Of a DNA stretch of 64,000 nucleotides, positions 3,458 to 29,245 are shown one piece after another. Origin of the DNA: Phycisphaeraceae bacterium (GTDB taxonomy: Bacteria; Planctomycetota; Phycisphaerae; Phycisphaerales; Phycisphaeraceae); assembly GCA_963674705.1 (NCBI GenBank), contig OY771506.1:512001-576000 (forward strand), written 5' to 3'. The notes below the pieces were generated by a model, which did no database searches, was not told the DNA's origin, and saw only the letters and a list, made by a program, of their open reading frames with translations. The first letter of the stretch is position 1; each line of letters starts with the position of its first letter. The position numbers and the translations under genes were made by a program.

Positions 3458-3656
3458 GTGTTCTAACTCAATTAAAAAAATGTCCCTCTTGCGAGCGAAC
3501 AATATACAGATAAATCTCTATCACAAAATAAGTCACCCAGACACCGGCTCGGTCCCGGGCAATCTGAGGCCGACACAAGATTTAACGGGTGCACTATCTT
3601 GCACGGTAGTGCAATATGTATTCAGCAGAGCTTGTTTTCTCGCAGCCTAAGAGCAG

Positions 3657-5093: not shown

Positions 5094-5180
5094 GGGTATA
5101 TCCTAAATCATTCATCTAATCACAGCTACAGGAAAAAAGGGATCAGAATGCCTAACTTTTTAAAAAGTCTCCCCGAGGAT

Positions 5181-6545
5181 TCACTCAAAGTGGAATATGG
5201 GTGACGGTGTGTGAGCAGCTTTCATAGCATGACTCATGCGGTCAACAAGAGCTGGATGGTCGGCAGCCACGTCTTGCGCTTCACCAGGGTCAGTAGGCAG
5301 GTGGTAGAGTTCAATCGGGGCGTTACGGTTGGTGCCAACGTTCAAGCGAACAGCTTTCCAATCGCCTATCCGCACCGCCTGCTTCCCCCCCCTTTCATAA
5401 AACTCCCAGTAAAGGTATTCATGCTCTTGCTGTAATTCGTCTCGTCCAAGAAGCGTCGGGGCGATGGAGATGCCATCCAGGCCGGTAGGTGCTTCGGCGC
5501 CAGCCAGGTCTAAGGCGGTGGGGACAAAATCCCAAAACGCGGTCACCAGATCACTCTGCGTTCCAGCCGGAACTGTACCTGGCCACCAGGCGATCTGAGC
5601 GGTGCGGATACCGCCTTCATAAAGATCTCGCTTGCCCCCACGTAGCGGGCCGTTGGAGTTGAAGAACTCCGGGTCTGCCCCTCCCTCGAAGTGCGGGCCG
5701 TTGTCGGATGCGAAAATGACAAGCGTATTCTTATCGATATCCAATTCTTTGAGATGATCCAGGACACGGCCGACGGATTCATCAATAAAGGCAACCATAC
5801 CGGCATAAGCAGCACGTGGTTCGGGTTGGTGGTAATACCCCCCTTTCGTGTTCGGCGTCTCCTCGAACTTGCCCCTGAATGAAGCCATGTACTTATGAGG
5901 CACGGTCAGGTCGGCATGAGGCGGCGTAAGTGAAAGGTGCAGGAAGAACGGGCCTTGCTTGTTATCTGAGATCCATTGGATCGCATCTTCGACAAACAGT
6001 GCATTGGCATAGGTATCGCCAGTCATGCCTTGATTACCGGGCAGCTGGATCTTTTCACCATTCCGGTAAAGCATAGTAGGGTAGTTCCGGTGTGCCGCGC
6101 TGTGTGCGAGGAATCCGAAGTAGTGGTCGAAACCCTTGTCGTTAGGAAGTGTTGCATCCTCGGAGTTACAACCGAGGCCGGACTTGCCGATCATCGCGGT
6201 GTGATAGCCGAGGTTTTTCAGCCTTGATGCGATGGTGATGTCTTCGGGATCGCGTCTGAACTGGACCTTTCCGTTCCCACGCTGCCAGACATGGCCGGTG
6301 TGTTGCCCGGTAAGAAGTGTGGCACGGCTTGGCGCACAGACGGTGCTGCCGGAATAAGCCTGAGTAAAATGCATGCCCTGCTGCGCCATCTGATCCAGGC
6401 GCGGCGTTTGCCAGTGTTGCTGGCCCAGGCATGAAAGATCGTGCTGTCCCAGATCGTCAACGAGAATATAGATGATGTTTGGCTGATCGGCTGCGGCAGC
6501 AACCGTAGTCAGTATCAGGCAGATTAATGAGAATAAAAGGTACAT
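5181..6545 (-). CDS. Secreted arylsulfatase (S1 family)
   Basis: Signal peptide, PNIIYILVDDLG, formylglycine motif CAPSRATLLTG, SDNG and LRGGKRDLYEGGIR. Confidence 0.93.
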   Translation of the reverse strand: MYLLFSLICLILTTVAAAADQPNIIYILVDDLGQHDLSCLGQQHWQTPRLDQMAQQGMHFTQAYSGSTVCAPSRATLLTGQHTGHVWQRGNGKVQFRRDPEDITIASRLKNLGYHTAMIGKSGLGCNSEDATLPNDKGFDHYFGFLAHSAAHRNYPTMLYRNGEKIQLPGNQGMTGDTYANALFVEDAIQWISDNKQGPFFLHLSLTPPHADLTVPHKYMASFRGKFEETPNTKGGYYHQPEPRAAYAGMVAFIDESVGRVLDHLKELDIDKNTLVIFASDNGPHFEGGADPEFFNSNGPLRGGKRDLYEGGIRTAQIAWWPGTVPAGTQSDLVTAFWDFVPTALDLAGAEAPTGLDGISIAPTLLGRDELQQEHEYLYWEFYERGGKQAVRIGDWKAVRLNVGTNRNAPIELYHLPTDPGEAQDVAADHPALVDRMSHAMKAAHTPSPIFHFE

Positions 6546-6876: not shown

Positions 6877-8214
6877 ATGAGCAACGACCTTTCTGAATCG
6901 GCCCCGGTCGCTGGGTCGAAGAATTCTGCAGCCGTTCGGCTGAGCGTGATGATGTTTCTTCAGTATGCGGTGTGGGGGGTGTGGCTGCCGCTGTTATCGA
7001 GGTATCTGGGTGCGGGGGTTGAAGACGGCGGGCTTGGGTTCACCGGCGCACAGATCGGGTGGATCCTGGGGCTGGCCGGTTCGATCGGTGCGGTCACCGG
7101 GCCGTTCATTGCCGGGCAGGTCGCCGACCGGTACATGAACGCAGAAAGAGCGTTGGGCTTGCTGCTGTTTCTCGGCGGCATCGTGCAGTACATCCTGTCG
7201 CTGCAAACGTCGTATACCGCGTGGCTTGCTCTGTCGATCGTGTATTCGATTCTTTACATGCCGACTCTTGCACTGACCAACAGTGTCGCATTTGCGAACC
7301 TGGACGATCCGGAGCGGAAGTTCCCGCCGGTGCGTTCGCTGGGCACGATCGGCTGGATCGTCGCATCCGTGGCGTTCCCGTTGATCTGGATGAGTAAGCC
7401 GGATAGCATCACGATGTTGAAGGGATGGCCCTTTATTGGTGGTGATCCAAGCGATAATGCCACAGCCCAGATCGCGGTGGCTCTGCAAGTATCCGGTGTC
7501 GTGTCGATCATCTACGCGATCTACAGCGTCATCGTGCTGCCGAAGACCCCGCCAAAGAAAGATGTGCAGCACCCGCTGGCGTTTGCCGAGGCGTTCAGCC
7601 TGTTCAAGCGTTTGGACTTCACCGTCCTGACGATCGCGGCGTTGCTGATTTCCATGATCCACAACTGCTACTTCATCCGCACGGGGCCGTACCTGGTCGA
7701 GGCGGTCGGCTTCACGGACGACAAGATCGGACCGGTCATGGCGCTGGGTCAGATCAGCGAGATCGTCGTACTGGCTGTGTTGGGGCTGTTTATTAAGAAG
7801 CTGGGGTATAAATGGGTACTGACGCTAGGCGCATTGTCGTTCGCGTTGCGGTACGGCTTGTTCGCGTTTGTGCTCTCGGCCGACGTCCCGAGCAAAGCGA
7901 TCGTACAAGGCGCGATGCTGCTGCACGGCCTGAACTATGGCTTCTTCTTCGCGGGCTCGTTCCTCTTTGTCGAAAAAATCGCCTCGGTGGATATCCGCCA
8001 CTCGGCCCAGACCGTGTTCGGGATCATCATCCTGGGCATGGGCCCGGTGCTGGCCGGCTTCTACAACGGGAAGTTTGACAGATTTAAAGGTGTCCAGGAT
8101 CAGCAGTTATACGACGTATTCTGGTGGACACAGGCGGGTATCGCAGCGTTCGTGATGCTGATGATGCTGATCGCGTTCTGGCCACCCAAGGCAAAAAGTG
8201 ATGTAAGCAATTGA
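6877..8214 (+). CDS. MFS transporter, nucleoside:H+ symporter (NupG/YegT-like) family
   Basis: MMFLQYAVWGVW, GQVADRY, YMPTLALTNS, FPPVRSLGTIGW and GQISE motifs; about 12 hydrophobic segments; GAGGAG RBS before ATG 6877. Confidence 0.88.
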   Translation: MSNDLSESAPVAGSKNSAAVRLSVMMFLQYAVWGVWLPLLSRYLGAGVEDGGLGFTGAQIGWILGLAGSIGAVTGPFIAGQVADRYMNAERALGLLLFLGGIVQYILSLQTSYTAWLALSIVYSILYMPTLALTNSVAFANLDDPERKFPPVRSLGTIGWIVASVAFPLIWMSKPDSITMLKGWPFIGGDPSDNATAQIAVALQVSGVVSIIYAIYSVIVLPKTPPKKDVQHPLAFAEAFSLFKRLDFTVLTIAALLISMIHNCYFIRTGPYLVEAVGFTDDKIGPVMALGQISEIVVLAVLGLFIKKLGYKWVLTLGALSFALRYGLFAFVLSADVPSKAIVQGAMLLHGLNYGFFFAGSFLFVEKIASVDIRHSAQTVFGIIILGMGPVLAGFYNGKFDRFKGVQDQQLYDVFWWTQAGIAAFVMLMMLIAFWPPKAKSDVSN

Positions 8215-8384
8215 TAACAAAAAGCCTAGCGTACACACACCAACCGTGTAACGCATGGATACATAAGACGTATACTGCTGGCTTGGCTACGCACATTGGA
8301 AGGATCAAACACAAAGGCCCATCAATGTTTGAAGATAAAATGTTCGCTGGTTGTTTTGGCTTCCTGAATTGGAGGAATGGATTG

Positions 8385-9098
8385 ATGTTAAGCAAACTGA
8401 TGTTGTGTGCCGTAGTGCTGGTTGGCTGTGCGGGCATGCAAGCCGGGTCTGATGATGCACAGGCTCCGAATACGCTGACCAAGAAAGAAAAGACCGACGG
8501 CTGGGAGCTGTTGTTTGATGGCAAGTCGATGGATAAGTGGCGCGGCTATCAAAAAGAAGACATGCCCGAGGGCTGGGTGATCGAAGGCGACAGCATCGTC
8601 ATGACCGGTGGCGGCGGCGACATCGTCACACGCGAGCAGTTCGACAACTTCGAACTGAAACTGGAATGGAAGATCCAGGAAGGCGGTAACTCCGGCATCT
8701 TCTATCGCGCCAACGAAGACCATCCCCGCATCTATGAAAGCGCCCCCGAGATGCAGGTGCTGGATAACAACAAGCACAACGATGGTAAAAACACGCTGAC
8801 CAGTGCCGGTGCCAATTATGGCCTGATAGCCGCGGTTCGCGATGTGACCCGACCTATCGGCGAATTCAACGAGGTCATGATCCTTGTCAACGGCAATCAC
8901 GTTGAACATCACTTGAACGGCGTCAAGCTGCTCGAATACGAACTGGGCTCCGACGAATGGAAAGAACTGGTCGCTAAATCAAAGTTCAAGGACTGGCCCG
9001 ATTACGGCAAGTTATCAAAGGGCTACATCGGCCTGCAGGACCACGGCGACAAGGTCTGGTACCGCAACATTAAGATCCGTCGTCTGAACGAAAAATAA
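8385..9098 (+). CDS. DUF1080 (3-keto-glycoside hydratase / 3-keto-disaccharide hydrolase family) exported protein
   Basis: GWELLFDGK, NFELKLEWK, GGNSGIFY, PEMQVLD and GYIGLQDHGDKVWYRNIKIR. GGAGG RBS before ATG 8385; signal/lipoprotein-like N-terminus. Confidence 0.9.
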   Translation: MLSKLMLCAVVLVGCAGMQAGSDDAQAPNTLTKKEKTDGWELLFDGKSMDKWRGYQKEDMPEGWVIEGDSIVMTGGGGDIVTREQFDNFELKLEWKIQEGGNSGIFYRANEDHPRIYESAPEMQVLDNNKHNDGKNTLTSAGANYGLIAAVRDVTRPIGEFNEVMILVNGNHVEHHLNGVKLLEYELGSDEWKELVAKSKFKDWPDYGKLSKGYIGLQDHGDKVWYRNIKIRRLNEK

Positions 9099-9136
9099 TC
9101 ACAGAAAAGCAATCACCTAATTTGGGAGTTTATATC

Positions 9137-10495
9137 GTGAGTTCACCTACCCCCCCCGCCGACCCCAAACAACCGTCCGGCCATTCACGCCGTGACTTCA
9201 TCGCACGCACGGCCGCGCTGGCCGGCAGCGCCGTCATTCTGGGCACCGCCGCTTCAAAATCCCAGGCCAAGATCGGCCTGCCCGACAAGGCGAAAATACC
9301 CAAGTCCGGCAAACGCGCCACGCTTGGACCGAATGACCCGATCAAGCTCGGTGTCATCGGTGTCGGCGGCATGGGCAGCGGACACGTGAACGCCTATCTC
9401 AACTTCGCACAAGAGAATCAGGAAAACGTCCAGATTGTCGCGCTGTGCGACGTATGCGAACCCCGATGGAACAACGCGCTGAACGCCTGTAAAGAAAAGC
9501 AGCCCGGCGTCGATGTCAAGACGTATACCAAGCACGAAGAACTGCTGGCACGTGATGATATCCACGGCGTGGTCGTCGCTACCACCGAACACTGGCACGG
9601 CCCGATCAGCATCGACGCGATCGAGGCCGGCAAAGACGTCTACTGCGAAAAGCCGATGACGCTCCGCCTGCCTGAGGCGTTACTGATGCGTGAAGTCTCC
9701 AAGGCCAACCCCGACATCATCGTGCAGGTCGGCACGCAGCAGATGATGCGGCCGAAGTTCACCGCCGCCCGCAAGCTGTTGGAAGAAGGCGCGATCGGTC
9801 AGCCCACGTTCTGCCAGACAAGTTATTGCCGCAACAACAAGGAAGGCGAATGGCTCTACTACGGTATCGACCCGTCATGGGAGCCGGGTGTGAACCTGGA
9901 CTGGGAACGCTGGTGCGGCCCGCTCGGTCACTATGACTGGAACCCGCGCCTGTACGCAAGCTGGCGCCGCTACAAGGACTTCTCCACCGGCATCATCGGC
10001 GACCTGCTGGTCCACGTGATGACCCCCATGATGTACGCGCTGCAGGCCGGCTGGCCGACACGCGTCGTCGCCTCCGGCGGGCACTACGTAGACAAGGCCA
10101 TGGAAAACCACGACCAGGTCAACATCAACGTCGAGTTCGAGAACGGCCCGACCATGGTCGTCGCCGGCTCAACGTCCAACGACATCGGCCTGCAGGAACT
10201 GATCCGCGGCCACAAGGCGGACATCTACCTCAACAGCCGTAACTGCGTGCTCCAGCCCGAGCGCGTTTATGTCGACGATGTCGACGCGCAGGAGATCATG
10301 GCTGAAGACATCGGCAACGATCAGAACGCCCTGCGTCGTGACTGGCTTAACAGCATCCGCACACGTAAGCCCAACCGCAGCCCGGTAGACCTGGCCGCAC
10401 AGGTCATGGTCATCGTAGACTTGGCGACCCGGTCGATGTGGGAAGGTCACGCCTACAAGTTCGACTCGAAGACACTGACCGCCGACAAGATCTGA
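9137..10495 (+). CDS. Tat-exported Gfo/Idh/MocA oxidoreductase
   Basis: SRRDFI Tat motif, GVIGVGGMG, ATTEHWH, KDVYCEKP and VQVGTQ. GTG start inferred from the GGAG RBS. Confidence 0.9.
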   Translation: MSSPTPPADPKQPSGHSRRDFIARTAALAGSAVILGTAASKSQAKIGLPDKAKIPKSGKRATLGPNDPIKLGVIGVGGMGSGHVNAYLNFAQENQENVQIVALCDVCEPRWNNALNACKEKQPGVDVKTYTKHEELLARDDIHGVVVATTEHWHGPISIDAIEAGKDVYCEKPMTLRLPEALLMREVSKANPDIIVQVGTQQMMRPKFTAARKLLEEGAIGQPTFCQTSYCRNNKEGEWLYYGIDPSWEPGVNLDWERWCGPLGHYDWNPRLYASWRRYKDFSTGIIGDLLVHVMTPMMYALQAGWPTRVVASGGHYVDKAMENHDQVNINVEFENGPTMVVAGSTSNDIGLQELIRGHKADIYLNSRNCVLQPERVYVDDVDAQEIMAEDIGNDQNALRRDWLNSIRTRKPNRSPVDLAAQVMVIVDLATRSMWEGHAYKFDSKTLTADKI

Positions 10496-10510
10496 TAAAG
10501 ATAAACCATA

Positions 10511-10546
10511 CGACCCCTTCCCCTGACAGGGCGGGGGTCGCTTTTT
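10511..10546 (+). terminator. Rho-independent terminator / attenuating hairpin
   Basis: CGACCCCTTCCCCT-GAC-AGGGCGGGGGTCG stem followed by CTTTTT, directly after the stop at 10495. Confidence 0.65.
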
Positions 10547-10563
10547 AGGCCTGTAGGAAACCG

Positions 10564-11490
10564 ATGCCGATCACACTTGCCACAAATGCGATGGGCACGC
10601 GCTTCGAGCTGGTGCTCGCCGGCGCTGCCCCGGAGAAACTGCGCCCGGCAGGTGAGGCTGCGCTGCACGAGATCGAAGAATGTCACCACCGGTTCAACCT
10701 GTTCGATCCGGGCAGTTGGCTGAACTCGATCAATCGACGCGCAACAGGTGAGGCTATCGCGTTGGACGACGAAACCTTCGACCTGCTGACGATGTGCCAA
10801 CAGGTTCACGAAGCATCTGAGGGTGCCTTCGACGTGACCGTCGCGCCACTCATGCAAGCATGGGGATTTCACGGCAATATTCATGGTGATGAACAAGCCA
10901 TCCTTGCCGCACAGAAGATGGTCGGGATGCAACACGTTCACCTTGACGCCTCAGCAAAAACCGTTCGCTTCACTCACCCCGGCATCACACTCGACCTCGG
11001 CGGCATCGCAAAAGGCTTTGCGATCGACATAGCGATACAAGTGCTTCGAGATTGCGGCGTACAATGCGCGTTATTGCACGGCGGGACAAGCACCGTCGCC
11101 GCGATCGCAGCGCCACCCGACGAAGATGGCTGGCGCGTTACTTTACGAACCTCGGCCGATAATTCGTCAAATCAACCGGCTCCGGTCGTTTGCCTGAAAG
11201 ACAACGCGATGTCCATCTCCGCCCCGCATGGCCGAACGATCCAATCCGACGGCAAAACTCTCGGCCACGTGCTGGACCCACGCACCCACAGACCCGCAGC
11301 CTGCGGACCGTTCGCCGCAGTCATCGCTGATTCGGCCTGCCTGACTGATGCGTGGTCGACCGCCCTTTTAGTCCTGGGTGAAGCGCCGCAAACAATACCC
11401 GACACAATTCACACGATCCTGCCCGAAACGATCGCTGATACAACATCAAACCATTCAACACCCACTCGGTTGGAGGCTATTTGCAGATGA
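10564..11490 (+). CDS. apbE: FAD:protein FMN transferase (ApbE family), no signal peptide
   Basis: AMGT, GAFDVTVAPL, LDLGGIAKGFAID, GHVLDPRT and TDAWSTA motifs. The N-terminus lacks a hydrophobic signal. Confidence 0.88.
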   Translation: MPITLATNAMGTRFELVLAGAAPEKLRPAGEAALHEIEECHHRFNLFDPGSWLNSINRRATGEAIALDDETFDLLTMCQQVHEASEGAFDVTVAPLMQAWGFHGNIHGDEQAILAAQKMVGMQHVHLDASAKTVRFTHPGITLDLGGIAKGFAIDIAIQVLRDCGVQCALLHGGTSTVAAIAAPPDEDGWRVTLRTSADNSSNQPAPVVCLKDNAMSISAPHGRTIQSDGKTLGHVLDPRTHRPAACGPFAAVIADSACLTDAWSTALLVLGEAPQTIPDTIHTILPETIADTTSNHSTPTRLEAICR

Positions 11491-12725
11491 GTGAGACAGA
11501 CCGACGTACATTCCTGAAACAAGCCGGCACCGCGATGGCGGCTGTATCTATTCTTCCCAGTCTGGCTTTCGCAGCCGATCTTGAACTGAATAAAGAGTTG
11601 CCCGTAGCCATCATCGGTATGGGTCGGCAAGGCCGCGCTATCGCCGGCGAACTTCAGAAGATCAAGGGCGTAAAGATCGTCGGCGTGTGCGATATTGACT
11701 CCGGTCGGCTTCGTTCAGGCGCACGCCGCGTAGCCGGTGTCACGCCATATGAAACGCACAGCAAGCTGCTGGCAGAAGCCAAGGATGTTTCCGCTGTCTT
11801 CATCGCTACGCCGACACACACGCACCGCGCGATTGCTGAAGACGCTATCGCCGCAGGCAAGCATGTTTACTGTGAAGCACCTATCGCTTCGACCGTCGAA
11901 GACTGCCAGGCCATGGCCACCGCCGCCCGCAACGCGTCCACCGTCTGCGTTGCCGGCCTGCTCGGCCGTAGCAACCCGATCTACCAACTGGCACGCACGT
12001 TTTACCGCTCCAACTCCGTGCGTGAACTGATCACGATGCGCGCCCAGGCCAACGAAAAGACCACCTGGCGCAACCCCGCCCCGACCCCGGAACGTGAAAG
12101 GGCCTTGAACTGGCGGCTGGACCCTGAACTTTCCATCGGCCTGGCGGGTGAACTCGGCACGCACCAGTTCGACGTGTTCCACTACTACCGGGATGAATAC
12201 CCCGTATCCGTGACCGGCCTCGGTTCGATCCAATTGCACAAGGACGGACGTAAGGTTGACGACACCATCAACGCACTGATCTCCTACGCCGACGGCACGG
12301 TCCTTGATTACGGCGCTACGCTCGGTAACTCACACGGCGGAACGCACGAAGTGTTCTACGGCTCTAACGCCGCCATCCAGCTCGCCTGGACGCATGGCTG
12401 GATGTTCAAGGAAGCCGACGCCCCGACACAAGGCTGGGAAGTCTACGCCAATCGTCAACGTTTCCACAATGAAGAAGGCATCACCCTCATCGCCGATGCG
12501 ACACAACTCGCCTCACAAGGCAAGCTCGAATCCGGCGTGGGCCTGCCGAATCCTTCTCTGTACTACGGGATCGCTGACTTCCTCAAGAGCGTGACCGAAA
12601 GTGAACCCGTCGTCACGTCCATGGCCGAAGGCGCACGCGCCACGATCGTCGGCATCCTCACCAACCAGGCGATTGTCACCGGCCAGACCGTAAAGATCGA
12701 TCCCGCAATGCTGGCTGGAGAATAA
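11487..12725 (+). CDS. Tat-exported Gfo/Idh/MocA oxidoreductase
   Basis: DRRTFLK Tat motif, IIGMGRQG, IATPTHTH and KHVYCEAP (the usual EKP Lys is Ala). ATGA overlap with apbE. Confidence 0.87.
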   Translation: MSETDRRTFLKQAGTAMAAVSILPSLAFAADLELNKELPVAIIGMGRQGRAIAGELQKIKGVKIVGVCDIDSGRLRSGARRVAGVTPYETHSKLLAEAKDVSAVFIATPTHTHRAIAEDAIAAGKHVYCEAPIASTVEDCQAMATAARNASTVCVAGLLGRSNPIYQLARTFYRSNSVRELITMRAQANEKTTWRNPAPTPERERALNWRLDPELSIGLAGELGTHQFDVFHYYRDEYPVSVTGLGSIQLHKDGRKVDDTINALISYADGTVLDYGATLGNSHGGTHEVFYGSNAAIQLAWTHGWMFKEADAPTQGWEVYANRQRFHNEEGITLIADATQLASQGKLESGVGLPNPSLYYGIADFLKSVTESEPVVTSMAEGARATIVGILTNQAIVTGQTVKIDPAMLAGE

Positions 12726-12728
12726 ACC

Positions 12729-13487
12729 GTGACACAGCCTTCATACCTAAGACCACTGGGCGTCACCGCAAGGCTTGGCCTGACCATTCTCGTGCTGACG
12801 CTGCTCGGTGGACTGACCGTGTCAGGTATTTACATGGCCTGGCATCATGAAAACCGTGACGAGCAGGCCGGCCTGACAATGGATGACATCCGCGGCCACT
12901 ACGCCGGTGTCAACAAACCCTCCCCACTGCTTCAAGCCCTTAAACGCAAGCACCCGGAGGAGCAGCCCGAGGCCTCACGACAGATCCTGATCGACTGGCT
13001 GACGGGCGACCGCATCAGCGAGGACTATGACAGTTTAGACCTCGGCGACCTTGCCCCCGCGGAAATTATCGCAAACGATTGCCTGGACTGTCACAGCCGA
13101 CAAAGCACGGGTGAGGGTACGTATGCCGAGTTGCCGCTGGATTACTTCGACGACATCCGTGACATCGCTTTTTCCAAGGATATCCGTCCGGTCGGAATGG
13201 AAGTGTTGGCCGCATCGACACACACACACGCGATCAGCCTGTCGATGTTGATCCTCGCCTCCAGCGGCCTGCTGTTACTGACCGGCTGGCCCCGGAAGCT
13301 GGTGAACCCCTTGATTCTGCTGACCGCACTGGGACTTGCGTGCGACTTATCCAGTTGGTGGATCGCACGTGTCTACCCGGGCATCGTTCCACTGATCGTC
13401 GCCGGCGGCTTCGTCTTCGCAGCGGGAACCGCACTATCGTTACTGATGGTCATAGGTGATCTTTGGCGCCCCGCAAAAAGCGACTGA
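12729..13487 (+). CDS. Membrane protein with one c-type heme motif
   Basis: N-terminal TM helix, a soluble loop containing CLDCH (CxxCH), then HTH-AISL and three further TM helices. Confidence 0.7.
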   Translation: MTQPSYLRPLGVTARLGLTILVLTLLGGLTVSGIYMAWHHENRDEQAGLTMDDIRGHYAGVNKPSPLLQALKRKHPEEQPEASRQILIDWLTGDRISEDYDSLDLGDLAPAEIIANDCLDCHSRQSTGEGTYAELPLDYFDDIRDIAFSKDIRPVGMEVLAASTHTHAISLSMLILASSGLLLLTGWPRKLVNPLILLTALGLACDLSSWWIARVYPGIVPLIVAGGFVFAAGTALSLLMVIGDLWRPAKSD

Positions 13488-13506
13488 CCATCTAACAAAT
13501 CACCCT

Positions 13507-13547
13507 AAAAAAGAAGCCCACGTTCGACGAACGTGGGCTTTTCATTT
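13507..13547. terminator. Bidirectional rho-independent terminator
   Basis: AAGCCCACGTTCG-A-CGAACGTGGGCTT perfect inverted repeat flanked by A and T runs, between convergent genes. Confidence 0.85.
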
Positions 13548-13568
13548 AACACACAAACTGTACCTGCA

Positions 13569-14507
13569 TCACGCAAGCTCTTTTTTCACCCGCTCCAGCA
13601 GCGCCTTCGTCGCGGCGATACCTTCCATTTCACCAAGACGTGATCCTTCGTACTCAATACCAACCCAGTTGTGATAGCCGGCATCCAGCACGATCTTCAT
13701 CATCTTGAAGTAATCGGTCTTGGTTTCGTTGCCTTTATCATCAAAATCGTGTGTCTTGGCGGACACGGCTTTGGCGTAAGGCATCAGTTCGGTAACGCCT
13801 TTGTATCGATCGTAGACCTTGCCGTCACCAAGGTTGAAGTTGCCGAAGTCGGGCAATGTGCCCACGCGCGGATGGTTGGTCATTTTCATCACACCGGAGA
13901 GCCATTCACCGTTGGATGACAGACCGCCGTGGTTCTCGACGGTGACGTCGATGTCATAGCCATCGGCAAACTCGCATAGACGGCGCAGACCATCAGCGGC
14001 AAGTCGCTGCTGCTCTTGGTATTCACCTTCACTGGCGGCATTAACTCGGATGCAGTGGCAGCCGAGGAACTTCGCCGCTTCAACCCACTTGTAGTGATTC
14101 TCTACGGACTTGATACGTGCCGCTTCGTCGGGGTCGCCGATGCGGCCTTCCCCGTCGCACATGATCAGGACGCTTGTCACACCGAGGTCGGCCGCGCGGG
14201 ACTTCATCTCGCCGAGGTACTTCTCGTCTTTCGCCTTATCCTTGAAGAAGGAGTTGACGTATTCGACACCATCGATGCCGAATTCCTTCTTGGCAACGGA
14301 TGCAAAGTCGAGATTGTCCAGCTTCCCCTCGTAGAGGGCGCGGTGCAACGACCACTGCGCCAACGAAATCTTGAACAGGGCGGCCGTGTCGGGTTCGTCT
14401 TCGGCGTCATCTTCCTTGGCGTGTGCTTCAGGCACAACAAGCGAGGCGCCGGCGATTAACGCAGCGGATGAGCGGATAAAACCACGTCGGGTAATGGATC
14501 GGTTCAC
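13569..14507 (-). CDS. Tat-exported sugar phosphate isomerase/epimerase (xylose-isomerase-like TIM barrel)
   Basis: TRRGFI Tat motif, [23 protein letters not shown] and VGIEYEG. Confidence 0.88.
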
Positions 14508-14564
14508 AGCAATGAGCTCCTATTGCGGTTTTTTTGATGTATCTGCCTTATTCTACCTTCACGA

Positions 14565-15890
14565 TCAGGCTCCGGGTACTGGAACCACCCCCTCCTCCGG
14601 CAGAGTCACGCCGCCGGACTCGAAGTCGGCCGCGGAGGGCGACAAGGCCAGGGCGTACCACTTGCTCTGCTTGTTCTCCGTCAGGTCTTCCCACGTGACC
14701 ATCTGCCCGGTATAAGCGGAGATCCGGCCCATGATCGCGGTCAGGGTGGACTCGGCGACCTGCTTGGCTTCGTTGAGCTTTTCGCCCTTCACGATCGCCG
14801 CCTGCAGGTCGACGTGCTCCTGCACGTAGGGGTTACTCGCTACCTGGACATCAGGCAAAGTGATCGGAGCCTTATCAAAACGAGCGATGCGTTTTTCATC
14901 CCAGACCCGGCCTTCGGTGCCGACGAAGTTGGTGTTGACCTGGTTGTAGCAATCGTTGATCTGCCGACACATCGAATGGATCGAGCAGTTATCCCCGTAA
15001 TTGAACTCGACGCTGAAGTTGTCATACATGTTACCGGTGACGCGGCGCTGCCGGCTGCCGAACCCGACCGCCGACTCGGGATGTCGGCCAATGAACCAGT
15101 TGGCCACGTCGATCTGGTGCACATGCTGCTCGACGATGTGGTCGCCGGAGGTTTCCAGGAAGCTGACCCAGTTGCGGATCATGTAGTCGGACGCCGATTC
15201 ACCGTCGTTGCGTTCCTTGTACCACAGACGATTCTGGCACCAGTAAATCTGACCGCCGAGGATCGTCCCGACCGCGCCATCCTTAATGGCTTGTGCATGT
15301 TTGATGTATCCAGCCTGGTGACGGCGCTGTGTGCCGGCGACGATATTCAATCCCTTGCTCTCAGCAAGTTCACCCAGGCTCATGACCTTCCGGCAACCGG
15401 GCGGGTCGACGGCCACAGGCTTCTCCATAAATACGTGCTTGCCCGCTTCAACAGCCGCCGCCAGATGCACGGGTCTGAAGTTCGGCGGGGTCGCAAGGAT
15501 CACAAGGTCGGCATCCGTCTGCATCAGTTGCTTGTAACCGGTCGGCCCGACAAAACAGTGATCGTCAGATACGCCGTATTCCTTGGCAACACCCTGGGCA
15601 CGATCGGCAAAGTAATCGCAGACCGCGATGCACTTGAGCTGGATGCCGTTGATCTCAGCGGCTTCCATCGCGTTCTTCAATGCGCCTTTACCGCGTCCAC
15701 CGCAACCAACCAGAGCGATCTTCAATGATCCGTCGCCCTGTGCGTACGCACTGGAACCCAGCCAGCCGGGCACCATGGTTAATGCGGCCGCTGCGGCGGT
15801 GCCTTGCAGGAAGGTACGGCGGGTTACGCCTGGTGTATCCGTAGACATGAATCCTGAATTATTCGTACTGTCGACTTGTCTATCGCTCAT
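14565..15890 (-). CDS. Tat-exported Gfo/Idh/MocA oxidoreductase
   Basis: TRRTFLQ Tat motif, LVGCGGRG, LATPPNFRP, KHVFMEKP and GDHIVEQHVH. Confidence 0.9.
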   Translation of the reverse strand: MSDRQVDSTNNSGFMSTDTPGVTRRTFLQGTAAAAALTMVPGWLGSSAYAQGDGSLKIALVGCGGRGKGALKNAMEAAEINGIQLKCIAVCDYFADRAQGVAKEYGVSDDHCFVGPTGYKQLMQTDADLVILATPPNFRPVHLAAAVEAGKHVFMEKPVAVDPPGCRKVMSLGELAESKGLNIVAGTQRRHQAGYIKHAQAIKDGAVGTILGGQIYWCQNRLWYKERNDGESASDYMIRNWVSFLETSGDHIVEQHVHQIDVANWFIGRHPESAVGFGSRQRRVTGNMYDNFSVEFNYGDNCSIHSMCRQINDCYNQVNTNFVGTEGRVWDEKRIARFDKAPITLPDVQVASNPYVQEHVDLQAAIVKGEKLNEAKQVAESTLTAIMGRISAYTGQMVTWEDLTENKQSKWYALALSPSAADFESGGVTLPEEGVVPVPGA

Positions 15891-15917
15891 GTTCCGTTCC
15901 TTTCCTCACAAGTGCGT

Positions 15918-17492
15918 TTAATCGAGGCCTGTATTTTCATTCGGCGGCATCTCGCAAACAACACGGAAGCCGACCCATCTTGCATTTACATACCACCACT
16001 GGCTCTTGGGTTCGTTCGGATAATCGCGGTTCCATTCGTCCTGGTCTTCCACGATCCGCCCGACGATTAGCTCATTCAGCGGCGATTCGAAATGACCGCC
16101 GCGTACGACACGCTCATCGCCGGTGCCCGTGACCCACTCAGCCACGTTGCCGGCTAAATCATAGATGCCCAGGCTGTTCGGTTCACGTTTGCCGATCTGC
16201 GTCGTCGCCCAATCGCCGATATCGTCGTCCCAGGCGTTATCTGTATAGGTCGCAACCCGATCGGCCTGCTCGGTGGAAGCCGGAGGGGAAAGCTCGCCGC
16301 CCCCTGCCGTGACGACCCGCTCCCACTCCGCTTCGGTCGGCAGACGATACGTCCTGCCGGTCTGCTTACTTAGCCACTTGCAGTACAACTCCGCGGATAG
16401 CCGGGACATGCCCAGTGCAGGTCGGCGGTACATCCCGAAGTTGCGGTCGACCGTGCCATAAGGCGAACTCGGCCGCAGCTTCAACGCACGCTCTTCCCCG
16501 ACCTCGGCCTCATCCTCAAGGTCATTGCCCTGCACCCAGGGCATAAACTCGTCCCAGGTCACTTCGTGCTTACCGATATAGAACGCCTGACTGTTGCTGT
16601 CGGGTTCGGCAGGCACCAGCGCCATATCGAACTGGACCTGTGTGGTTGGGATCGTTTCCGTAAATGATTCAGGCCAATCGGTTGTATCGATCGTAGTATC
16701 GGTTGATGTAGTTTCGTTGCCATTGGTTGCAGATGTATTCTCAACAACCGTATCGCTTGATTCCGCAGCATCCAAGGGTACTTCGATCCGCAACCTGACC
16801 GCGACGTTGTCTGCGATGTCTTCATTGGTCAGCAGGAGACCCAATATGCCTTCTTCTTTCAGCTCAACATCAAATGCGTGACGGTCCAGGCTGAATTCGC
16901 TGCTAACGATGAGTAAGTTTTCGGTGTGTTCAATGGTGACCGGAAACTCGATGTGCTTGGTAATGCCGTTGAGTGTGAATTCACCGGAGACAACCGTGGT
17001 ATCCTTTGCAGCTTCATCCGTAGCATCATCGGCAGGCTTATCAATGAACCCGCCTTGGAAAGTTGCCCACGGATGCTGCTCCGGCCGAAAGAATCCCGCG
17101 GTTAACAGCGCCTCGGTAAGTTGATCGTGTTCAGACCAAAGCGAGTCGATCCGAGCTTTGGCATCGAGCCAACGCGGTCGGCTGGTCGACGCATCTATAC
17201 CAAGTGTTCCTTCGATTTCGCTATCGAATTTTCCGCTCCACCCGCCACGCACAACAAGTGTTTTCCCGGCGACGGTCTTGGCACATGAAAAACTGACCGT
17301 GGTGTTCTGCGCAGACAGATCAAGACGTCGGTCCGAATCATCTAAAAGTGTCGCAAAAGTGGGAGCTTTTGTGTCACCGATGTGCGCAGAGGTCATCACA
17401 CGGGCCTCATCGTGCGCATTGGGATATAGCACGTACGCTAAACCGGTAAGACCGATCAACATGACAAAAACAATGACAACTTTCTTCATCAT
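15918..17492 (-). CDS. Membrane-anchored YceI-like + FGE/SUMF1-like fusion protein
   Basis: N-terminal TM anchor; YceI-like part (SGEFTLNGITKHIEFPV, FSLDRHAF); Thr-rich linker; FGE-sulfatase part (YIGKHEVTW, YRLPTEAEWE, PNSLGIYDLAGNVAEW, VVRGG, VGFRVV). Confidence 0.8.
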   Translation of the reverse strand: MMKKVVIVFVMLIGLTGLAYVLYPNAHDEARVMTSAHIGDTKAPTFATLLDDSDRRLDLSAQNTTVSFSCAKTVAGKTLVVRGGWSGKFDSEIEGTLGIDASTSRPRWLDAKARIDSLWSEHDQLTEALLTAGFFRPEQHPWATFQGGFIDKPADDATDEAAKDTTVVSGEFTLNGITKHIEFPVTIEHTENLLIVSSEFSLDRHAFDVELKEEGILGLLLTNEDIADNVAVRLRIEVPLDAAESSDTVVENTSATNGNETTSTDTTIDTTDWPESFTETIPTTQVQFDMALVPAEPDSNSQAFYIGKHEVTWDEFMPWVQGNDLEDEAEVGEERALKLRPSSPYGTVDRNFGMYRRPALGMSRLSAELYCKWLSKQTGRTYRLPTEAEWERVVTAGGGELSPPASTEQADRVATYTDNAWDDDIGDWATTQIGKREPNSLGIYDLAGNVAEWVTGTGDERVVRGGHFESPLNELIVGRIVEDQDEWNRDYPNEPKSQWWYVNARWVGFRVVCEMPPNENTGLD

Positions 17493-17568
17493 AAAACGTC
17501 GAGTGACCGATCCGAGGATGAATATTATTTCTGTTGTTGGGGGCCGAATCGAACATTACCATGTCGGC

Positions 17569-18555
17569 ATGTTCGATCGCTCCCCCGTTATCTACTTTCT
17601 GACGGCAATACTAGTGCTTGCCATGGTGAGCGTCAAAGAATCGCAAGCAGAGGCGCCAGAAATATTTAGTCCGCATTTGATCCGGGTCGAGGTCCGGCAA
17701 TCTCACATGGGGATGCCTGTTTTTCTGCGGGTTTATGCCGAAGATGAGGCGGCCGGACAACGTGCCTGCCAGGCAGCATTTAAGCGGATCGCCGAGTTAA
17801 ATATGGTGCTTTCGGATTACGAGCCGGACTCCGAATTATCTCGCTTATCCGCCGGTTCGGGAACTGGGAAGGTTCCGGTTTCGCCTGAATTATTAACGGT
17901 GCTGGTGCAGGCGAAAAGTATCGCTGAACAAACCGAAGGCCTGCTCGATCCTACTGCCGGGCCGGTGATTCGAGTTTGGCGCAAAGTCCGCACCACAAAA
18001 CAACTACCCGATCAAAACACGATCGCTGAAGCGCTTAAACACGTCGGTTATTCAAATCTGCGATTGGATGAATCCAAACGAGAAGTTGAACTGACGCTTG
18101 ATGATATGCGGCTCGATCTAGGTGCGATTGCCAAGGGACATGTTGGCGATGAAGCGATCAAGTGCTTACGCGAGTTGGGGTATCCGATCGCGATGTTCGA
18201 GGCGGGCGGCGATATGGTGTTCGGCGATCCGCCGCCGGGCGAAGAAGGCTGGCTGGTTAAGCCGGCATATGATGGGCTACCCGAGTTAAGGCTGGCCAAT
18301 ACGGCCGCGGCGATCTCCGGCAATACCGTGCAATTCGTCGAGATCGACGGCAAAAGCTACGGCCACATCATCGACCCGCGCACCGGGTACCCGATCACCA
18401 CGCGGCATGTCTGCCTGGTCGCCGCCGCCAGCGGCCTGTCGGCTGACCCATTAGCGACACTGGGTACGATTATGGATGAAACGGCATATTACAAACTACT
18501 GGAAGTACATTATCCTGACACCCGGGCGTGGATTGTTACACTAGAAGAGAATTGA
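17569..18555 (+). CDS. apbE: FAD:protein FMN transferase (ApbE family), with signal peptide
   Basis: HMG, LSDYEPDSELSRL, GLLDPT, LDLGAIAKG, AGGD, YGHIIDPRTG and ADPLAT. A hydrophobic signal follows ATG 17569; the longer ORF start overlaps the divergent gene. Confidence 0.88.
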   Translation: MFDRSPVIYFLTAILVLAMVSVKESQAEAPEIFSPHLIRVEVRQSHMGMPVFLRVYAEDEAAGQRACQAAFKRIAELNMVLSDYEPDSELSRLSAGSGTGKVPVSPELLTVLVQAKSIAEQTEGLLDPTAGPVIRVWRKVRTTKQLPDQNTIAEALKHVGYSNLRLDESKREVELTLDDMRLDLGAIAKGHVGDEAIKCLRELGYPIAMFEAGGDMVFGDPPPGEEGWLVKPAYDGLPELRLANTAAAISGNTVQFVEIDGKSYGHIIDPRTGYPITTRHVCLVAAASGLSADPLATLGTIMDETAYYKLLEVHYPDTRAWIVTLEEN

Positions 18556-18577
18556 CTTACCACATGGAGCTTGCATC

Positions 18578-19528
18578 ATGATCGATCGTCGCAGTTTCAT
18601 CGCCGCCGGGCTGGCTTCCGCCGCCGGCATCACCGCCGCCGCCACCAATACCGCCCAGGGACAGGACACGAAAGAGGACAAGATGCCCAGCGAGTCATCA
18701 AACAGCGCAACGCCCTTCAAGATGAAGTACGCCCCCCACTTCGGCATGTTCAAGGAGCACGCGGGTGATGACCTGGTCGCACAATTGAAGTTTGCTAAAA
18801 GCGTCGGCTTCCACGCGTGGGAAGACAACGGCATGATGGGCCGCGACGTCGCCACACAGGAAAAGGTCGCTGCGGCCATGAGCGATCTTGGCATGGAGAT
18901 GGGTGTGTTCGTCGCACATGCTGAATGGCGTGAACCGATCTACGTCAAGGGTGGCGCTGATGCTCGCAAGAAGCTTCAGGATCAGATGCGCCAAGCGGTC
19001 GAAGTTGCCAAGCGTGTGAATGCGAAGTGGTGCACGGTCGTACCCGGGCCTTATGTGAACAACATGGAATGGGATTACCAGACAGCAAACGTCGTCGACT
19101 GCCTGCGTGCGATGGCGGAGATCTGCGAGCCTAGCGGTCTTGTCATGGTGCTTGAGCCGTTGAATCCATGGGCGAACCACCCGGGTATGTTCCTGAGCAA
19201 GGTGCCCCAAGCTTATGCGATCTGCGAAGCGGTCAACTCACCAAGCTGCAAGATTCTTGATGACCTGTATCACCAGCAAGTCACCGAGGGGAACCTGATC
19301 CCGAACATTGATATGGCATGGAAGCACATTGCGTATATCCAGCTTGGTGATAACCCCGGCCGAAAGGAACCCTGGACCGGCGAGATCAACTACCGCAACA
19401 TCTTTGCCCACCTCAACAAGAAAGGCTTCGACGGCATCATCGGCATGGAACACGGCCTAAGCCAAGGCGGTAAGGAAGGTGAGCAGAAGCTGATTGATGC
19501 GTATCGCAAGTGCGATGACTTTGCTTGA
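18578..19528 (+). CDS. Tat-exported hydroxypyruvate-isomerase-like TIM barrel protein
   Basis: DRRSFI Tat motif, KYAPHFGMF, VLEPLN, DLYHQQVTEGNLI, DNPGRKEPWTGEINY and GMEH. Confidence 0.88.
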   Translation: MIDRRSFIAAGLASAAGITAAATNTAQGQDTKEDKMPSESSNSATPFKMKYAPHFGMFKEHAGDDLVAQLKFAKSVGFHAWEDNGMMGRDVATQEKVAAAMSDLGMEMGVFVAHAEWREPIYVKGGADARKKLQDQMRQAVEVAKRVNAKWCTVVPGPYVNNMEWDYQTANVVDCLRAMAEICEPSGLVMVLEPLNPWANHPGMFLSKVPQAYAICEAVNSPSCKILDDLYHQQVTEGNLIPNIDMAWKHIAYIQLGDNPGRKEPWTGEINYRNIFAHLNKKGFDGIIGMEHGLSQGGKEGEQKLIDAYRKCDDFA

Positions 19529-19541
19529 TTCACAATTGTGA

Positions 19542-20966
19542 TCAACCCACTGCTTTTATCGGGAACAACCTGCCAATCATGACTACCAGGCCGGACACGC
19601 CAACGGTAGTTAGTGCGCCAGCGACCGCCCAGTGTGTCTGTCCAGTGAAGTTGCCGTAGGCGAAGACAGGCAATCCGATGCCGATCGACATCAGGATGCC
19701 GTAGAACACTGCACGTTCGGGCAATCGTTGCCAGATCAGTGAGAACACGGTCGGCAGGAGCGTCGAGGCGCGGAGTGTGCCGTAGAAGAGGAACAGGTAC
19801 AGCACTTTCAAGCCGGGGGTATTCGCCAGCCCGATCCCGGCAAGCGCCAGTAACACCATACTGATGCGTGCATATCGAACGATCCTGCGGTCGTCGGCGA
19901 TATGGCTTTGCGACAGATCATGTCCGGCCAGGCTTGATATCGCACAGAGATTTGAGTCGAGTGTTGAGACCAGGCCCGACAGCAACATAAAGACGAAGGG
20001 GAACATTACCCATGCCGGGAGGTAGTGGCGGACAGCCAGAACGTTCACCTGTTCGTTGGCTTGTGTTTCCAGACCGCTACCACGTGCGACAAAACCCAGT
20101 ACCGATAGAGATAACGGGACTATCGCAAAGATTAACGCGCCAAGGATGAAAGCCGGGGCAACCCGTTTTTCCTTGATGCCGAACGCACGCTGCCAGAAGG
20201 ATTGATCCCCGAACGGCCCAGCCAGCAGACCAATCGTGACGGGGATGCCGAAGCTGTAAGAGATCCATGCTCCTTTACCTGTAAACAGACTATTGATATC
20301 ACCTTGCGGTCCATTTAATCCATCAAGTAATGATTGAGTGCCCGATTTCATTAATACCCAAGGCACAACGACCGCGCTGACTGCAAGGATCACGATCATC
20401 TGAACAAAGTCCGTCACGACCGAGGCGCGTAGGCCGTTTAATAACGAATAGAGCAGTGCGATACCGGCAAGCGAGAACGTAACCGACCAGAACGGCACGC
20501 CGCACAACAGCGATATCACTTTGCCGCCCGCGAGTAACTGCACCGCGAACGAACAGATCGCCAGGCCGCCGAGTTGGAAGCCATAAAGTATCTGTACGCG
20601 CTTGGAGTATCGGCTGCGCATGTAGTGCGATAGCGTGAAACCTTCGGGCAACAGCCGCCTCATACGCGCGGCGAAGAATGCAAAGATGATCAGACATGCA
20701 ACGTTCGGCACGGTAAACCAGAACAAGCCCACCCAGCCCTGGCTGTATGCACGCTCGCTTGCGATAAACAAGGCCGGCGCCCAGATCCACGTAGCTGCTA
20801 TTGAAAAAGCAGCGCCCCAAACGCCCAGCTTACGGCCCGCAACTAGGAATTGCTCCTTAGACAGAACATCATGTCGGCCCGACCACCATGCGAGTAATAG
20901 CATCAGCCCGCCATACGTCGCGACGATGCCCCAGCCTTGCAGGGTTGTCATTACCGGCTCATTCAC
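19542..20966 (-). CDS. Sodium:solute symporter (SSS) family transporter, DUR3/PutP-like
   Basis: FLVAGR, FSIAATWIWA, GLRASVVTDFVQ, DQSFWQR and STLDS; about 13 TM segments. Confidence 0.85.
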   Translation of the reverse strand: MNEPVMTTLQGWGIVATYGGLMLLLAWWSGRHDVLSKEQFLVAGRKLGVWGAAFSIAATWIWAPALFIASERAYSQGWVGLFWFTVPNVACLIIFAFFAARMRRLLPEGFTLSHYMRSRYSKRVQILYGFQLGGLAICSFAVQLLAGGKVISLLCGVPFWSVTFSLAGIALLYSLLNGLRASVVTDFVQMIVILAVSAVVVPWVLMKSGTQSLLDGLNGPQGDINSLFTGKGAWISYSFGIPVTIGLLAGPFGDQSFWQRAFGIKEKRVAPAFILGALIFAIVPLSLSVLGFVARGSGLETQANEQVNVLAVRHYLPAWVMFPFVFMLLSGLVSTLDSNLCAISSLAGHDLSQSHIADDRRIVRYARISMVLLALAGIGLANTPGLKVLYLFLFYGTLRASTLLPTVFSLIWQRLPERAVFYGILMSIGIGLPVFAYGNFTGQTHWAVAGALTTVGVSGLVVMIGRLFPIKAVG

Positions 20967-20975
20967 TTACGCACC

Positions 20976-22718: not shown

Positions 22719-23191
22719 TCGCCCCCGTCCGATGTCGATTCAAGATAATGGAGCATGGCCTTTGCCTCAGGTGCAAGTGAGCCATCAGGGTGTTCCGCCA
22801 ATGATCGGAATCGCGCGACAGCCTCATCCGACTTGCCTTCCCACAGATCGATCATGGCAAGTTTGTACTCGCTCTTGTGGGCCTCGAGAGAGCCGGGATA
22901 TGTTTGGATAACGGATTCGAAAGCGGATCGTGCCGAGACAAGATCATCCATGCCAAGGTAAGCCTTGGCGATGAAAAACTGCGCCCGGCTGGCATCCGCA
23001 TGATTGGGATGCTGCTGCTGGAAGGTCTGCAGTTTCGGGATCGCCTCGGCGTATTTGCCTTGCGTAACTAACAGCCTGGCAGCATCGAACTCACGCGAAG
23101 CCTGACCGCCCCGCGGCTTTGCGCAGGCAGGAATGCTGACCATCATGAGTATCAGCAACAGTATGGATAGATAGTGTTTGTGATCAGCCAT
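22715..23191 (-). CDS. TPR-repeat lipoprotein (BamD/YbgF-like)
   Basis: Hydrophobic signal ending IPAC, followed by TPR repeats (KYAEAIPKL...HPNH, AQFFIAKAY, FESVIQTYPGS). Confidence 0.75.
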   Translation of the reverse strand: MADHKHYLSILLLILMMVSIPACAKPRGGQASREFDAARLLVTQGKYAEAIPKLQTFQQQHPNHADASRAQFFIAKAYLGMDDLVSARSAFESVIQTYPGSLEAHKSEYKLAMIDLWEGKSDEAVARFRSLAEHPDGSLAPEAKAMLHYLESTSDGGE

Positions 23192-24161: not shown

Positions 24162-24235
24162 CGTTCACCCCCTTCCCGGATGATGCGGACAGTATACCGG
24201 ACATCAACAGGACGGGAGCCACAGCGAGGTCACGA

Positions 24236-29239: not shown

Positions 29240-29245
29240 GATGTA

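Follow-up and report, generated by a model that had tools for sequence, protein, structure and literature searches.

Why should genes for exported sugar dehydrogenases stand among two genes for ApbE flavin transferases, a gene for an FGE-fold protein and a gene for a membrane CxxCH protein? The question is raised by positions 6877..19528 of a 64,000-nucleotide stretch, here called the window, of the genome of a Phycisphaeraceae bacterium (GCA_963674705.1, contig OY771506.1, positions 512,001 to 576,000), a single contig of 5.54 Mb that is 96.6% complete; the closest relatives of the window genes are also labelled Phycisphaeraceae. The answer we favour, to which we give a probability of about 55%, is that exported NAD-type dehydrogenases of the Gfo/Idh/MocA family (Gfo) would oxidise sugars or glycosides in the periplasm, and that the two ApbEs would put flavin mononucleotide (FMN) on two undescribed carriers, which would re-oxidise the trapped NADH into the membrane. 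The system itself is real and conserved and is built from known kinds of parts; it has apparently not been published. A first-pass annotation of this DNA had proposed a periplasmic 3-keto-glycoside system linked to membrane electron transfer. Its list of 11 genes and their clustering were borne out by coordinates, Pfam domains and conserved neighbourhoods, and its interpretation held in part; it had missed that the genes fall into two modules, that ApbE1 has no signal and that Gfo2 is altered catalytically, and it had not seen the candidate flavinylation sites.

All 11 genes were confirmed from the sequence and Pfam at the coordinates listed below. They are transcribed as three blocks and do not form a single operon: block 1 on the plus strand (MFS, DUF1080, Gfo1, ApbE1, Gfo2 and the CxxCH gene), block 2 on the minus strand (YceI-FGE, Gfo3 and TIM1) and block 3 on the plus strand (ApbE2 and TIM2). 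The Pfam domains found are Nuc_H_symport in the major facilitator superfamily (MFS) permease, 3keto-disac_hyd (DUF1080), three GFO_IDH_MocA, two AP_endonuc_2, two ApbE, and YceI together with FGE-sulfatase. The features are the following, Tat standing for the twin-arginine motif.

6877..8214, plus strand: MFS permease, nucleoside:H+ symporter-like (PF03825, E 3e-87), likely importer of the sugar product
8385..9098, plus strand: DUF1080 protein with an N-terminal leader, likely 3-keto-glycoside lyase/hydratase (PF06439, E 2e-51)
9137..10495, plus strand: Gfo1, Tat Gfo/Idh/MocA dehydrogenase with EKP and D-x-x-x-H intact (conservation over 66 sequences)
10564..11490, plus strand: ApbE1, flavin transferase without export signal (PF02424, E 6e-55)
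11487..12725, plus strand: Gfo2, Tat Gfo protein without the EKP lysine and with a conserved insertion at about residues 300-355, candidate ApbE1 substrate
12483..12503, plus strand: Gfo2 residues 333-339, ending in Thr339 ([DN]-A-T), candidate non-canonical flavinylation site
12729..13487, plus strand: four-helix membrane CxxCH protein, predicted heme protein (CxxCH at 13080-13094; PF27139, Aq_1264_TM)
13514..13540, no strand assigned: likely terminator, a 12-pair hairpin where the CxxCH and TIM1 genes converge (the total count of such sites is not above that in shuffles)
13569..14507, minus strand: TIM1, Tat xylose-isomerase-like TIM barrel (PF01261; nearest structure 4ovx)
14565..15890, minus strand: Gfo3, Tat Gfo dehydrogenase of module B, EKP intact
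15918..17492, minus strand: YceI-FGE, membrane anchor with YceI and FGE-fold domains (PF04264, PF03781), candidate ApbE2 substrate and electron carrier
16467..16487, minus strand: YceI-FGE residues 336-342, ending in R-P-Ser342, candidate flavinylation site, degenerate here
17569..18555, plus strand: ApbE2, flavin transferase with an N-terminal hydrophobic leader, divergent from the FGE-type gene (PF02424, E 5e-59)
18578..19528, plus strand: TIM2, Tat TIM barrel, similar to hydroxypyruvate isomerases and keto-sugar epimerases

The twin-arginine motif is found in all three Gfo and both TIM-barrel proteins. A hydrophobic N-terminus is seen in the DUF1080 protein, ApbE2 and YceI-FGE, and none in ApbE1. 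The genes make up two modules, A (Gfo1, ApbE1, Gfo2 and the CxxCH protein) and B (ApbE2, the FGE-fold protein, Gfo3 and a TIM barrel).

Module A was followed in other genomes from the CxxCH gene, in the best 80 of 154 genome loci and counting only loci with enough flanking DNA. Gfo2 lies upstream of this gene in 73 of 74 loci, ApbE1 is present in 69 of 71 and Gfo1 in 64 of 67, the MFS gene is upstream in 46 of 54, and TIM1 is convergent with the CxxCH gene in 59 of 74; the DUF1080 query matched 38 of the 80 loci, mostly through distant paralogues. The clustering is not due to chance. With Gfo2 as a second, independent anchor, found in 18 of a sample of 151 genomes of the phylum, ApbE1 is immediately upstream of, or fused to, Gfo2 in 15 of the 18, and the CxxCH gene follows Gfo2 in 14. 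In two of these 18 genomes, which belong to different families, ApbE1 and Gfo2 form one open reading frame (ORF) with an internal twin-arginine motif (L147:463-2634 in genome G002 and L148:970-3600 in genome G136; neither locus has a CxxCH gene). The order DUF1080-Gfo-ApbE-Gfo, with a leaderless ApbE, is also found on two Persicobacter plasmids.

The two ApbEs score 187 and 200 bits with PF02424 (cut-off 25.6), and residues corresponding to the catalytic triad Ser-His-Asp described for ApbE in the available text of PMC12052999 are present: Ser219 of ApbE1 is conserved among its orthologues, the His and Asp motifs are there, and equivalents are visible in ApbE2. A hydrophobic leader is seen in none of 67 ApbE1 orthologues, which form their own clade in the tree (30 plus 1, support 0.93), and ApbE1 is predicted to be cytoplasmic because it has no export signal. 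Gfo2 shows E-x-P without the lysine in all 18 phylum-sample sequences, and its insertion, which ends in [DN]-A-T, is conserved more strongly than the remaining protein. Gfo1 is the likely catalytic subunit of the module.

The CxxCH protein has no match in the local Pfam copy; its relatives carry PF27139, named Aq_1264_TM, and the locus offers this membrane cytochrome family a first functional context. Four hydrophobic segments are present, and CxxCH falls in the periplasmic loop between helices 1 and 2. In an alignment of 34 sequences (the window protein and 33 of the 120 matches listed), C118, C121, H122, H75 and H165 are invariant; the conserved histidines are His39, His75, His165 and His167, and conserved histidines lie near the ends of helices 1 and 2. 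The structure model reached a pLDDT of 85.5, and the fold search returned only generic four-helix bundles (best Z 8.7). For cytochrome c maturation the genome holds three Cytochrom_C_asm matches. Some relatives with PF27139 are fused to additional cytochrome c domains, and some are automatically annotated as "elongation factor-1 alpha", apparently a misnomer. Elsewhere in the genome, multiheme ORFs with 10-13 CxxCH each lie in a row next to genes for cytochrome c assembly (G000:C1:4459000-4481100); these and an ORF with 22 CxxCH (C1:1538658-1542032) are possible downstream electron acceptors.

For module B, FGE-type domains occur in 41 of the same 151 genomes and in 32 of 49 genomes with module A; in the 30 FGE-type loci returned from the latter, ApbE2 adjoins in all 30 and a Gfo3-like gene is present in 25. 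Among 80 metagenome loci with an FGE-type gene, 41 of which have at least 2 kb on both sides, these well-flanked loci contain a Gfo gene in 35 cases. When the unlabelled neighbours over the 80 loci were clustered, most groups were off-frame artefacts, and no additional conserved gene emerged. In 20 wider regions, counted by eye, the FGE-type gene has an ApbE gene nearby in 15 and a Gfo gene in 19. Beside the FGE-type gene at two loci (L115:10080 and L117:10387) are ORFs matching both ApbE2 and DUF1080, possible ApbE-DUF1080 fusions.

The two modules occur together in 11 of the 18 Gfo2 genomes, and an FGE-type gene lies within 10 kb downstream of the CxxCH gene in only 2 of 64 loci. Both modules form one cluster of about 19 kb, together with TIM2, DUF1080 and MFS genes, in 8 of 20 wider regions fetched for this comparison, where the FGE-type gene lies some 15 kb upstream; the first eight regions had been picked because an FGE match lay near module A, and exactly those eight are the joint ones. 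The gene set of the window is thus a rearranged form of a recurring cluster. YceI is fused to the FGE-type domain in most of its closest homologues and is a separate, adjacent gene in one genome. The ApbE, FGE-like, YceI and cytochrome genes could also be passengers with no part in what the sugar locus does. This would agree with the three transcription directions, the separation of the modules in close relatives and the optional presence of YceI; it is nevertheless highly improbable and is largely refuted by the co-occurrence, as the gene order is conserved, in-frame fusions exist, the Gfo-ApbE-Gfo order recurs in Bacteroidota, and the control described below is cleanly negative.

What, then, would the two ApbEs modify? 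They are the only ApbE genes of the genome and both lie in this cluster. In the available text of PMC8238504 and PMC11334425, the known ApbE target classes are FMN_bind, NqrB/RnfD, DUF2271, DUF3570, Flavodoxin_4 and FMN_red, and the genome has no match to FMN_bind, NqrB/RnfD, DUF2271 or Flavodoxin_4. FMN_bind is absent from 42 of the 49 module-A genomes, for which no completeness values were given. Among the 47 phylum-sample genomes that have at least one module, 21 are without FMN_bind and 18 without both FMN_bind and DUF2271. An ApbE gene is present in 41 of 41 FGE-type genomes and 18 of 18 Gfo2 genomes against 122 of 151 overall, in counts where kin are not independent.

The candidate target of ApbE2 is the FGE-fold domain. 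The canonical ApbE motif is D-x-x-[ST]-G-A-[ST] (PMC12052999, in its available text). In 120 close homologues, the corresponding loop of the FGE domain has Pro in 120, Ser/Thr in 120 and Arg in 117. Across 40 of the 45 phylum-sample places (5 were not fetched), its seven positions read Asp in 37, Ala/Gly in 36, any residue, Ser/Thr in 32, Arg in 33, Pro in 40 and Ser/Thr in 40. In the 77 of 80 metagenome loci that were scored, the last position is Ser/Thr in all 77, and in 7 the exact form D-x-x-[ST]-G-A-T stands in the same alignment column. The non-canonical majority of the relatives have mostly D-x-x-[ST]-R-P-[ST], and G-P, R-A and S-A intermediates exist. In a tree built without the motif columns, the 117 FGE-type sequences stand apart from 30 controls (support 0.94), and the canonical forms make up one clade nested among the R-P forms. 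The controls, 30 loci returned from a search of 26 genomes for other FGE-family domains, include none with the motif and none with an ApbE or Gfo gene within 1.5 kb.

The model of the FGE-fold domain (pLDDT 93.4) matches FGE-fold structures. In FGE enzymes the catalytic cysteine pair follows an RGG motif. No cysteine after this motif was found in the window protein or in the consensus of 91 sequences. Because of its Pfam name, and with a sulfatase gene just upstream on the opposite strand, the protein might be taken for a factor that matures sulfatases or another enzyme and carries no electrons; the lack of the cysteine pair, the separate clade of 117 into which none of the 30 other FGE domains falls, and the Gfo and ApbE neighbours make that very unlikely. 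Used as a profile, the FGE alignment retrieved chiefly long proteins with many FGE repeats, from which no family size could be read.

The candidate target of ApbE1 is Gfo2, at Thr339. This position is Thr in each of the 74 close sequences and in all 18 from across the phylum, and it does not vary even at 35% identity. In a Spirosoma Gfo whose gene adjoins apbE, the canonical motif lies within the same insertion, and a Chondrinema Gfo has a near-canonical one there, with no apbE in its 13-kb region. Among 40 other ApbE genes of the phylum, 5 have a Gfo-like neighbour and none of these neighbours has the canonical motif. In three planctomycete loci (L310, L312 and L316), Gfo genes near ApbE1-like genes encode a Ser/Thr-rich, non-canonical insertion at the position of the Gfo2 insertion. 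The predicted compartments fit both pairs: a leaderless ApbE would meet a Tat-exported candidate, and an exported ApbE an anchored one.

Gene fusions provide a link to the membrane. In Parabacteroides distasonis (NZ_OY725790.1, L323:7353-8930), a NapC/NirT tetraheme domain (PF03264, E 4e-22) is N-terminal to an FGE-type domain, and the fusion gene is followed by genes for a Tat Gfo protein, 43% identical to Gfo3, and a TIM barrel. This carrier of the fusion is a gut commensal usable for genetics. CxxCH motifs N-terminal to the FGE domain were found in 9 of 80 metagenome loci and in 2 genome loci, and in the single case scanned the domain is PSCyt1. At the same position, the window protein has its membrane anchor and YceI, for which a ubiquinone-8-bound structure is reported in the available text of PMC8981238. 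Three different redox partners at one position suggest an electron-carrier role for the FGE domain. The membrane electron-transfer link suspected in the first-pass annotation gained independent support from these fusions.

What is observed is the gene content with its conserved order, the export signals, the conserved sites, the fusions and the absence of matches to known ApbE targets. The flavinylation, the binding partners, the direction of electron flow and the substrate that we infer would come together as follows. In module A, cytoplasmic ApbE1 would flavinylate Gfo2 at Thr339 ahead of Tat export; Gfo2, itself without the catalytic lysine, would have Gfo1 as its catalytic partner and would reduce the heme or hemes of the membrane CxxCH protein. 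In module B, Ser342 of the anchored FGE-fold domain would receive its FMN from ApbE2 in the periplasm; the domain would accept electrons from Gfo3 and pass them to a YceI-bound quinone here, or to NapC/NirT or a c-type cytochrome in relatives. The DUF1080 and TIM-barrel proteins would process the keto-sugars, and the MFS permease would import the product. In favour of such a relay, the characterised AL3/BT3 dehydrogenase stalls in its reduced form; the available text of that work names cytochromes as a possible oxidant and favours recycling on 3-keto-glucose (10.1101/2024.03.25.586180).

A number of observations speak against this flavin relay. No [ST]GA[ST] is found in the Gfo1-3, CxxCH, TIM, YceI-FGE, ApbE, MFS or DUF1080 proteins, the FGE loop of the window lacks the -6 Asp and the -3 Ser/Thr and keeps only R-P-Ser342, and in the one enzyme described in the available text of PMC12052999, flavinylation fell to roughly half when the G and A positions were changed. 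The canonical seven-residue motif turns up 14 times when the genome is read in six frames (3.06 million residues); because of this the motif by itself is not diagnostic, and an unrecognised ApbE target elsewhere in the genome is therefore possible. The argument for the candidate FGE site rests on the fixed position of the motif and on the neighbouring apbE. DUF3570 has no match in the genome, in a search whose control was silent, and FMN_red was not searched. Of the 41 metagenome FGE loci with good flanks, only 26 contain an ApbE gene; the 17-kb region of P. distasonis has no annotated one, and the ApbE2 clade has a support of only 0.43. There is no FGE-type match in 17 of the 49 module-A genomes and no CxxCH gene at 4 of the 18 Gfo2 loci. 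YceI is optional and is carried by none of the 80 metagenome FGE loci. The co-occurrence across genomes by which the first-pass annotation had proposed to judge its system thus came out positive for apbE, the cytochrome and the FGE-like gene, and negative for YceI, which is found mostly in one fused clade. As to Gfo2, its site has only A-T in common with the canonical motif, MAFFT placed the canonical Spirosoma site in another column than Thr339, the near-canonical Chondrinema site is likewise not column-aligned with it, and two Persicobacter Gfo2-like proteins encoded beside a leaderless ApbE show neither form of the motif.

The case for flavinylation of Gfo2 is therefore weaker than that for the FGE domain, and one of the two main rivals starts from this difference. 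Only module B would be a flavin relay; ApbE1 would act in free flavin turnover or on another protein, Gfo2 would be a non-catalytic structural partner, and the CxxCH protein would be a separate acceptor or sensor. We regard this as quite unlikely. In its favour, 7 of 77 relatives have the canonical form at the FGE site, while the site in Gfo2 is a weak one that the Persicobacter homologues lack. Against it stand the position of ApbE1 directly upstream of Gfo2 or fused to it, the invariance of Thr339 and the canonical-type motif in the same insertion of other Gfo proteins.

The other main rival concerns the sugar chemistry. The DUF1080 protein keeps, by eye, seven of the eight site residues of BT2157 (Asn134, Glu164, Gln166, Tyr190, Lys245, Gln273 and His275), and Glu103 of BT2157 falls in a loop that is missing from the window protein; the residue lists for BT2157 and AL3 were taken from the available text of 10.1101/2024.03.25.586180. 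The nearest solved structure to Gfo1 is the glycoside 3-dehydrogenase AL3 (8tdf, E 1e-20), with matching Gln, Arg, Asp and His, the Trp offset and the Tyr outside the alignment. TIM1 is closest to 4ovx (E 2e-118), an uncharacterised structure titled TIM barrel domain protein, and weakly matches C-glycoside DgpC-type chains, and TIM2 matches Hyi-like proteins and a 3-keto-glucoside 4-epimerase. Neither TIM barrel matches a chain named as AL1/BT2156 lyase (E up to 0.001), and no Gfo reaches an NCBIfam cut-off, the best scores being 112 against 750 bits (BT_2158_fam) and 52 against 650 (BT_2159_fam). The 3-keto-glycoside label of the first-pass annotation agrees with the DUF1080 site and with AL3 as the nearest structure to Gfo1, but finds no backing in the family cut-offs or the TIM barrels. 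The cluster appears to work like the 3-keto-glycoside route and is at most a putative member of it. A search for a link to N-acetylglucosamine use found no paper; one Spirosoma locus lies in an N-acetylglucosamine context, and GH92 genes are present at one Persicobacter locus.

In this second rival, 3-keto-glycoside hydrolysis would be self-contained, the NADH being recycled on the keto-sugar, and the flavin and heme parts would only reset over-reduced or over-oxidised NAD, possibly by drawing electrons from quinol in the reducing direction. As a rule, NapC/NirT proteins oxidise quinol, so the P. distasonis fusion fits electron flow toward the dehydrogenase. The intact DUF1080 and the recycling of NAD on 3-keto-glucose in the published pathway (10.1101/2024.03.25.586180, in its available text) also speak for this rival. 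Against it, an occasional reset would hardly seem to call for two dedicated ApbEs and a cytochrome whose tight order is preserved over many families, and in the same source the Bacteroides thetaiotaomicron pathway runs in vitro on four enzymes alone. We consider the reset function unlikely, and continue to prefer re-oxidation of the trapped NADH into the membrane by flavinylated carriers.

A broader form of the proposal can be put forward more tentatively, at somewhat less than even odds. FGE-fold domains and Gfo/Idh/MocA proteins would be two undescribed classes of ApbE substrate, and their dedicated ApbEs would read D-x-x-[ST]-R-P-[ST] and [DN]-A-T; one of these enzymes would work in the cytoplasm, on a protein still to be exported by Tat. 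NAD-locked dehydrogenases would in this way be made respiratory, in Planctomycetota and Bacteroidota, through interchangeable membrane ends (an Aq_1264-type cytochrome, NapC/NirT, c-type cytochromes or a YceI-bound quinone).

Around the cluster, positions 917-6545 of the window (minus strand), just upstream, encode a GH2 glycosidase, the glucuronate isomerase UxaC and the sulfatase, which were not seen as conserved neighbours. Downstream, positions 19542-29680 (minus strand) encode a sodium:solute symporter, an asparagine-synthase-like protein, a TPR protein and a 1667-residue protein, apparently unrelated to the cluster. A scan for promoters and terminators gave counts not above chance (5 against 6.8; 15 against 11.6).

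If the relay is as proposed, the re-oxidation in vivo of periplasmic Gfo dehydrogenases with trapped NAD (10.1101/2024.03.25.586180; PMC8121099; both in their available text) becomes directly testable, and so do the substrates of the remaining orphan ApbEs, which according to the available text of PMC8238504 are still found in 4% of genomes. The ApbE motif would be widened beyond G-A, and a group of proteins mislabelled as sulfatase-modifying factors would receive a function. The exact candidate residues, Ser342 and Thr339, and their cognate enzyme pairs can be named. The present analysis adds the joint cluster, the graded motif series with its control, and the fusions. The literature search, which left subscription journals largely uncovered, returned no description of this combination, of ApbE with FGE-like or Gfo substrates, or of aq_1264. 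The main text of PMC8238504 contains no occurrence of GFO, YceI or sulfatase, and its large supplementary tables may list such neighbours.

How does the locus compare with known systems? The YceI/X158 ubiquinone-binding domains of Cbp2D and Cbp2E (PMC8981238, in its available text) likewise join YceI to a presumed redox module in carbohydrate metabolism, but the YceI of the window is membrane-anchored and fused to an FGE-fold domain, and its quinone binding is only predicted. PvdO, PorK/GldK and SUMF1 share the FGE fold (TM-score of about 0.65 to PvdO and TvP1); unlike them, the window domain, at about 20% identity, has no catalytic cysteines and has a conserved Ser/Thr loop that is absent from all 30 controls. 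LacABC and ThuAB are flavoprotein dehydrogenases of another family. As glucoside 3-dehydrogenases, they resemble the present system in oxidising sugar in the periplasm beside DUF1080, and are described as cytochrome c-dependent in the available text of PMC9007349 and PMC8121099, whereas the dehydrogenases here are NAD-binding Gfo proteins, whose proposed link to the membrane is a relay of covalently bound FMN. A signal-less ApbE has a parallel in the cytoplasmic ApbE of Klebsiella, and an ApbE-target fusion in the ApbE-fumarate reductase of trypanosomatids (PMC12052999, in its available text); in contrast to these, the proposed target here is a Gfo that is afterwards exported by Tat. The BT2156-BT2159/AL1-AL4 pathway (PMC8121099; 10.1101/2024.03.25.586180; both in their available text) shares with the window the Tat Gfo, the conserved DUF1080 site, the TIM barrels, the periplasmic location and the nearness of Gfo1 to AL3, but here there are three Gfo proteins, all with Tat and far under the NCBIfam cut-offs, TIM barrels off the named lyases, and in addition two ApbEs, an FGE-fold protein and a membrane cytochrome. 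Finally, as in ApbE-flavinylated extracytosolic electron transfer (PMC8238504, PMC11334425), apbE lies beside a likely target and a membrane electron-transfer protein, and the site has the form Asp-x-x-Ser/Thr-x-x-Ser/Thr. The candidates here, an FGE-fold domain and a Gfo, lie outside the classes named in the available text of those two papers, the motif mostly has R-P in place of G-A, and one of the two ApbEs is predicted to be cytoplasmic and would act before Tat export.

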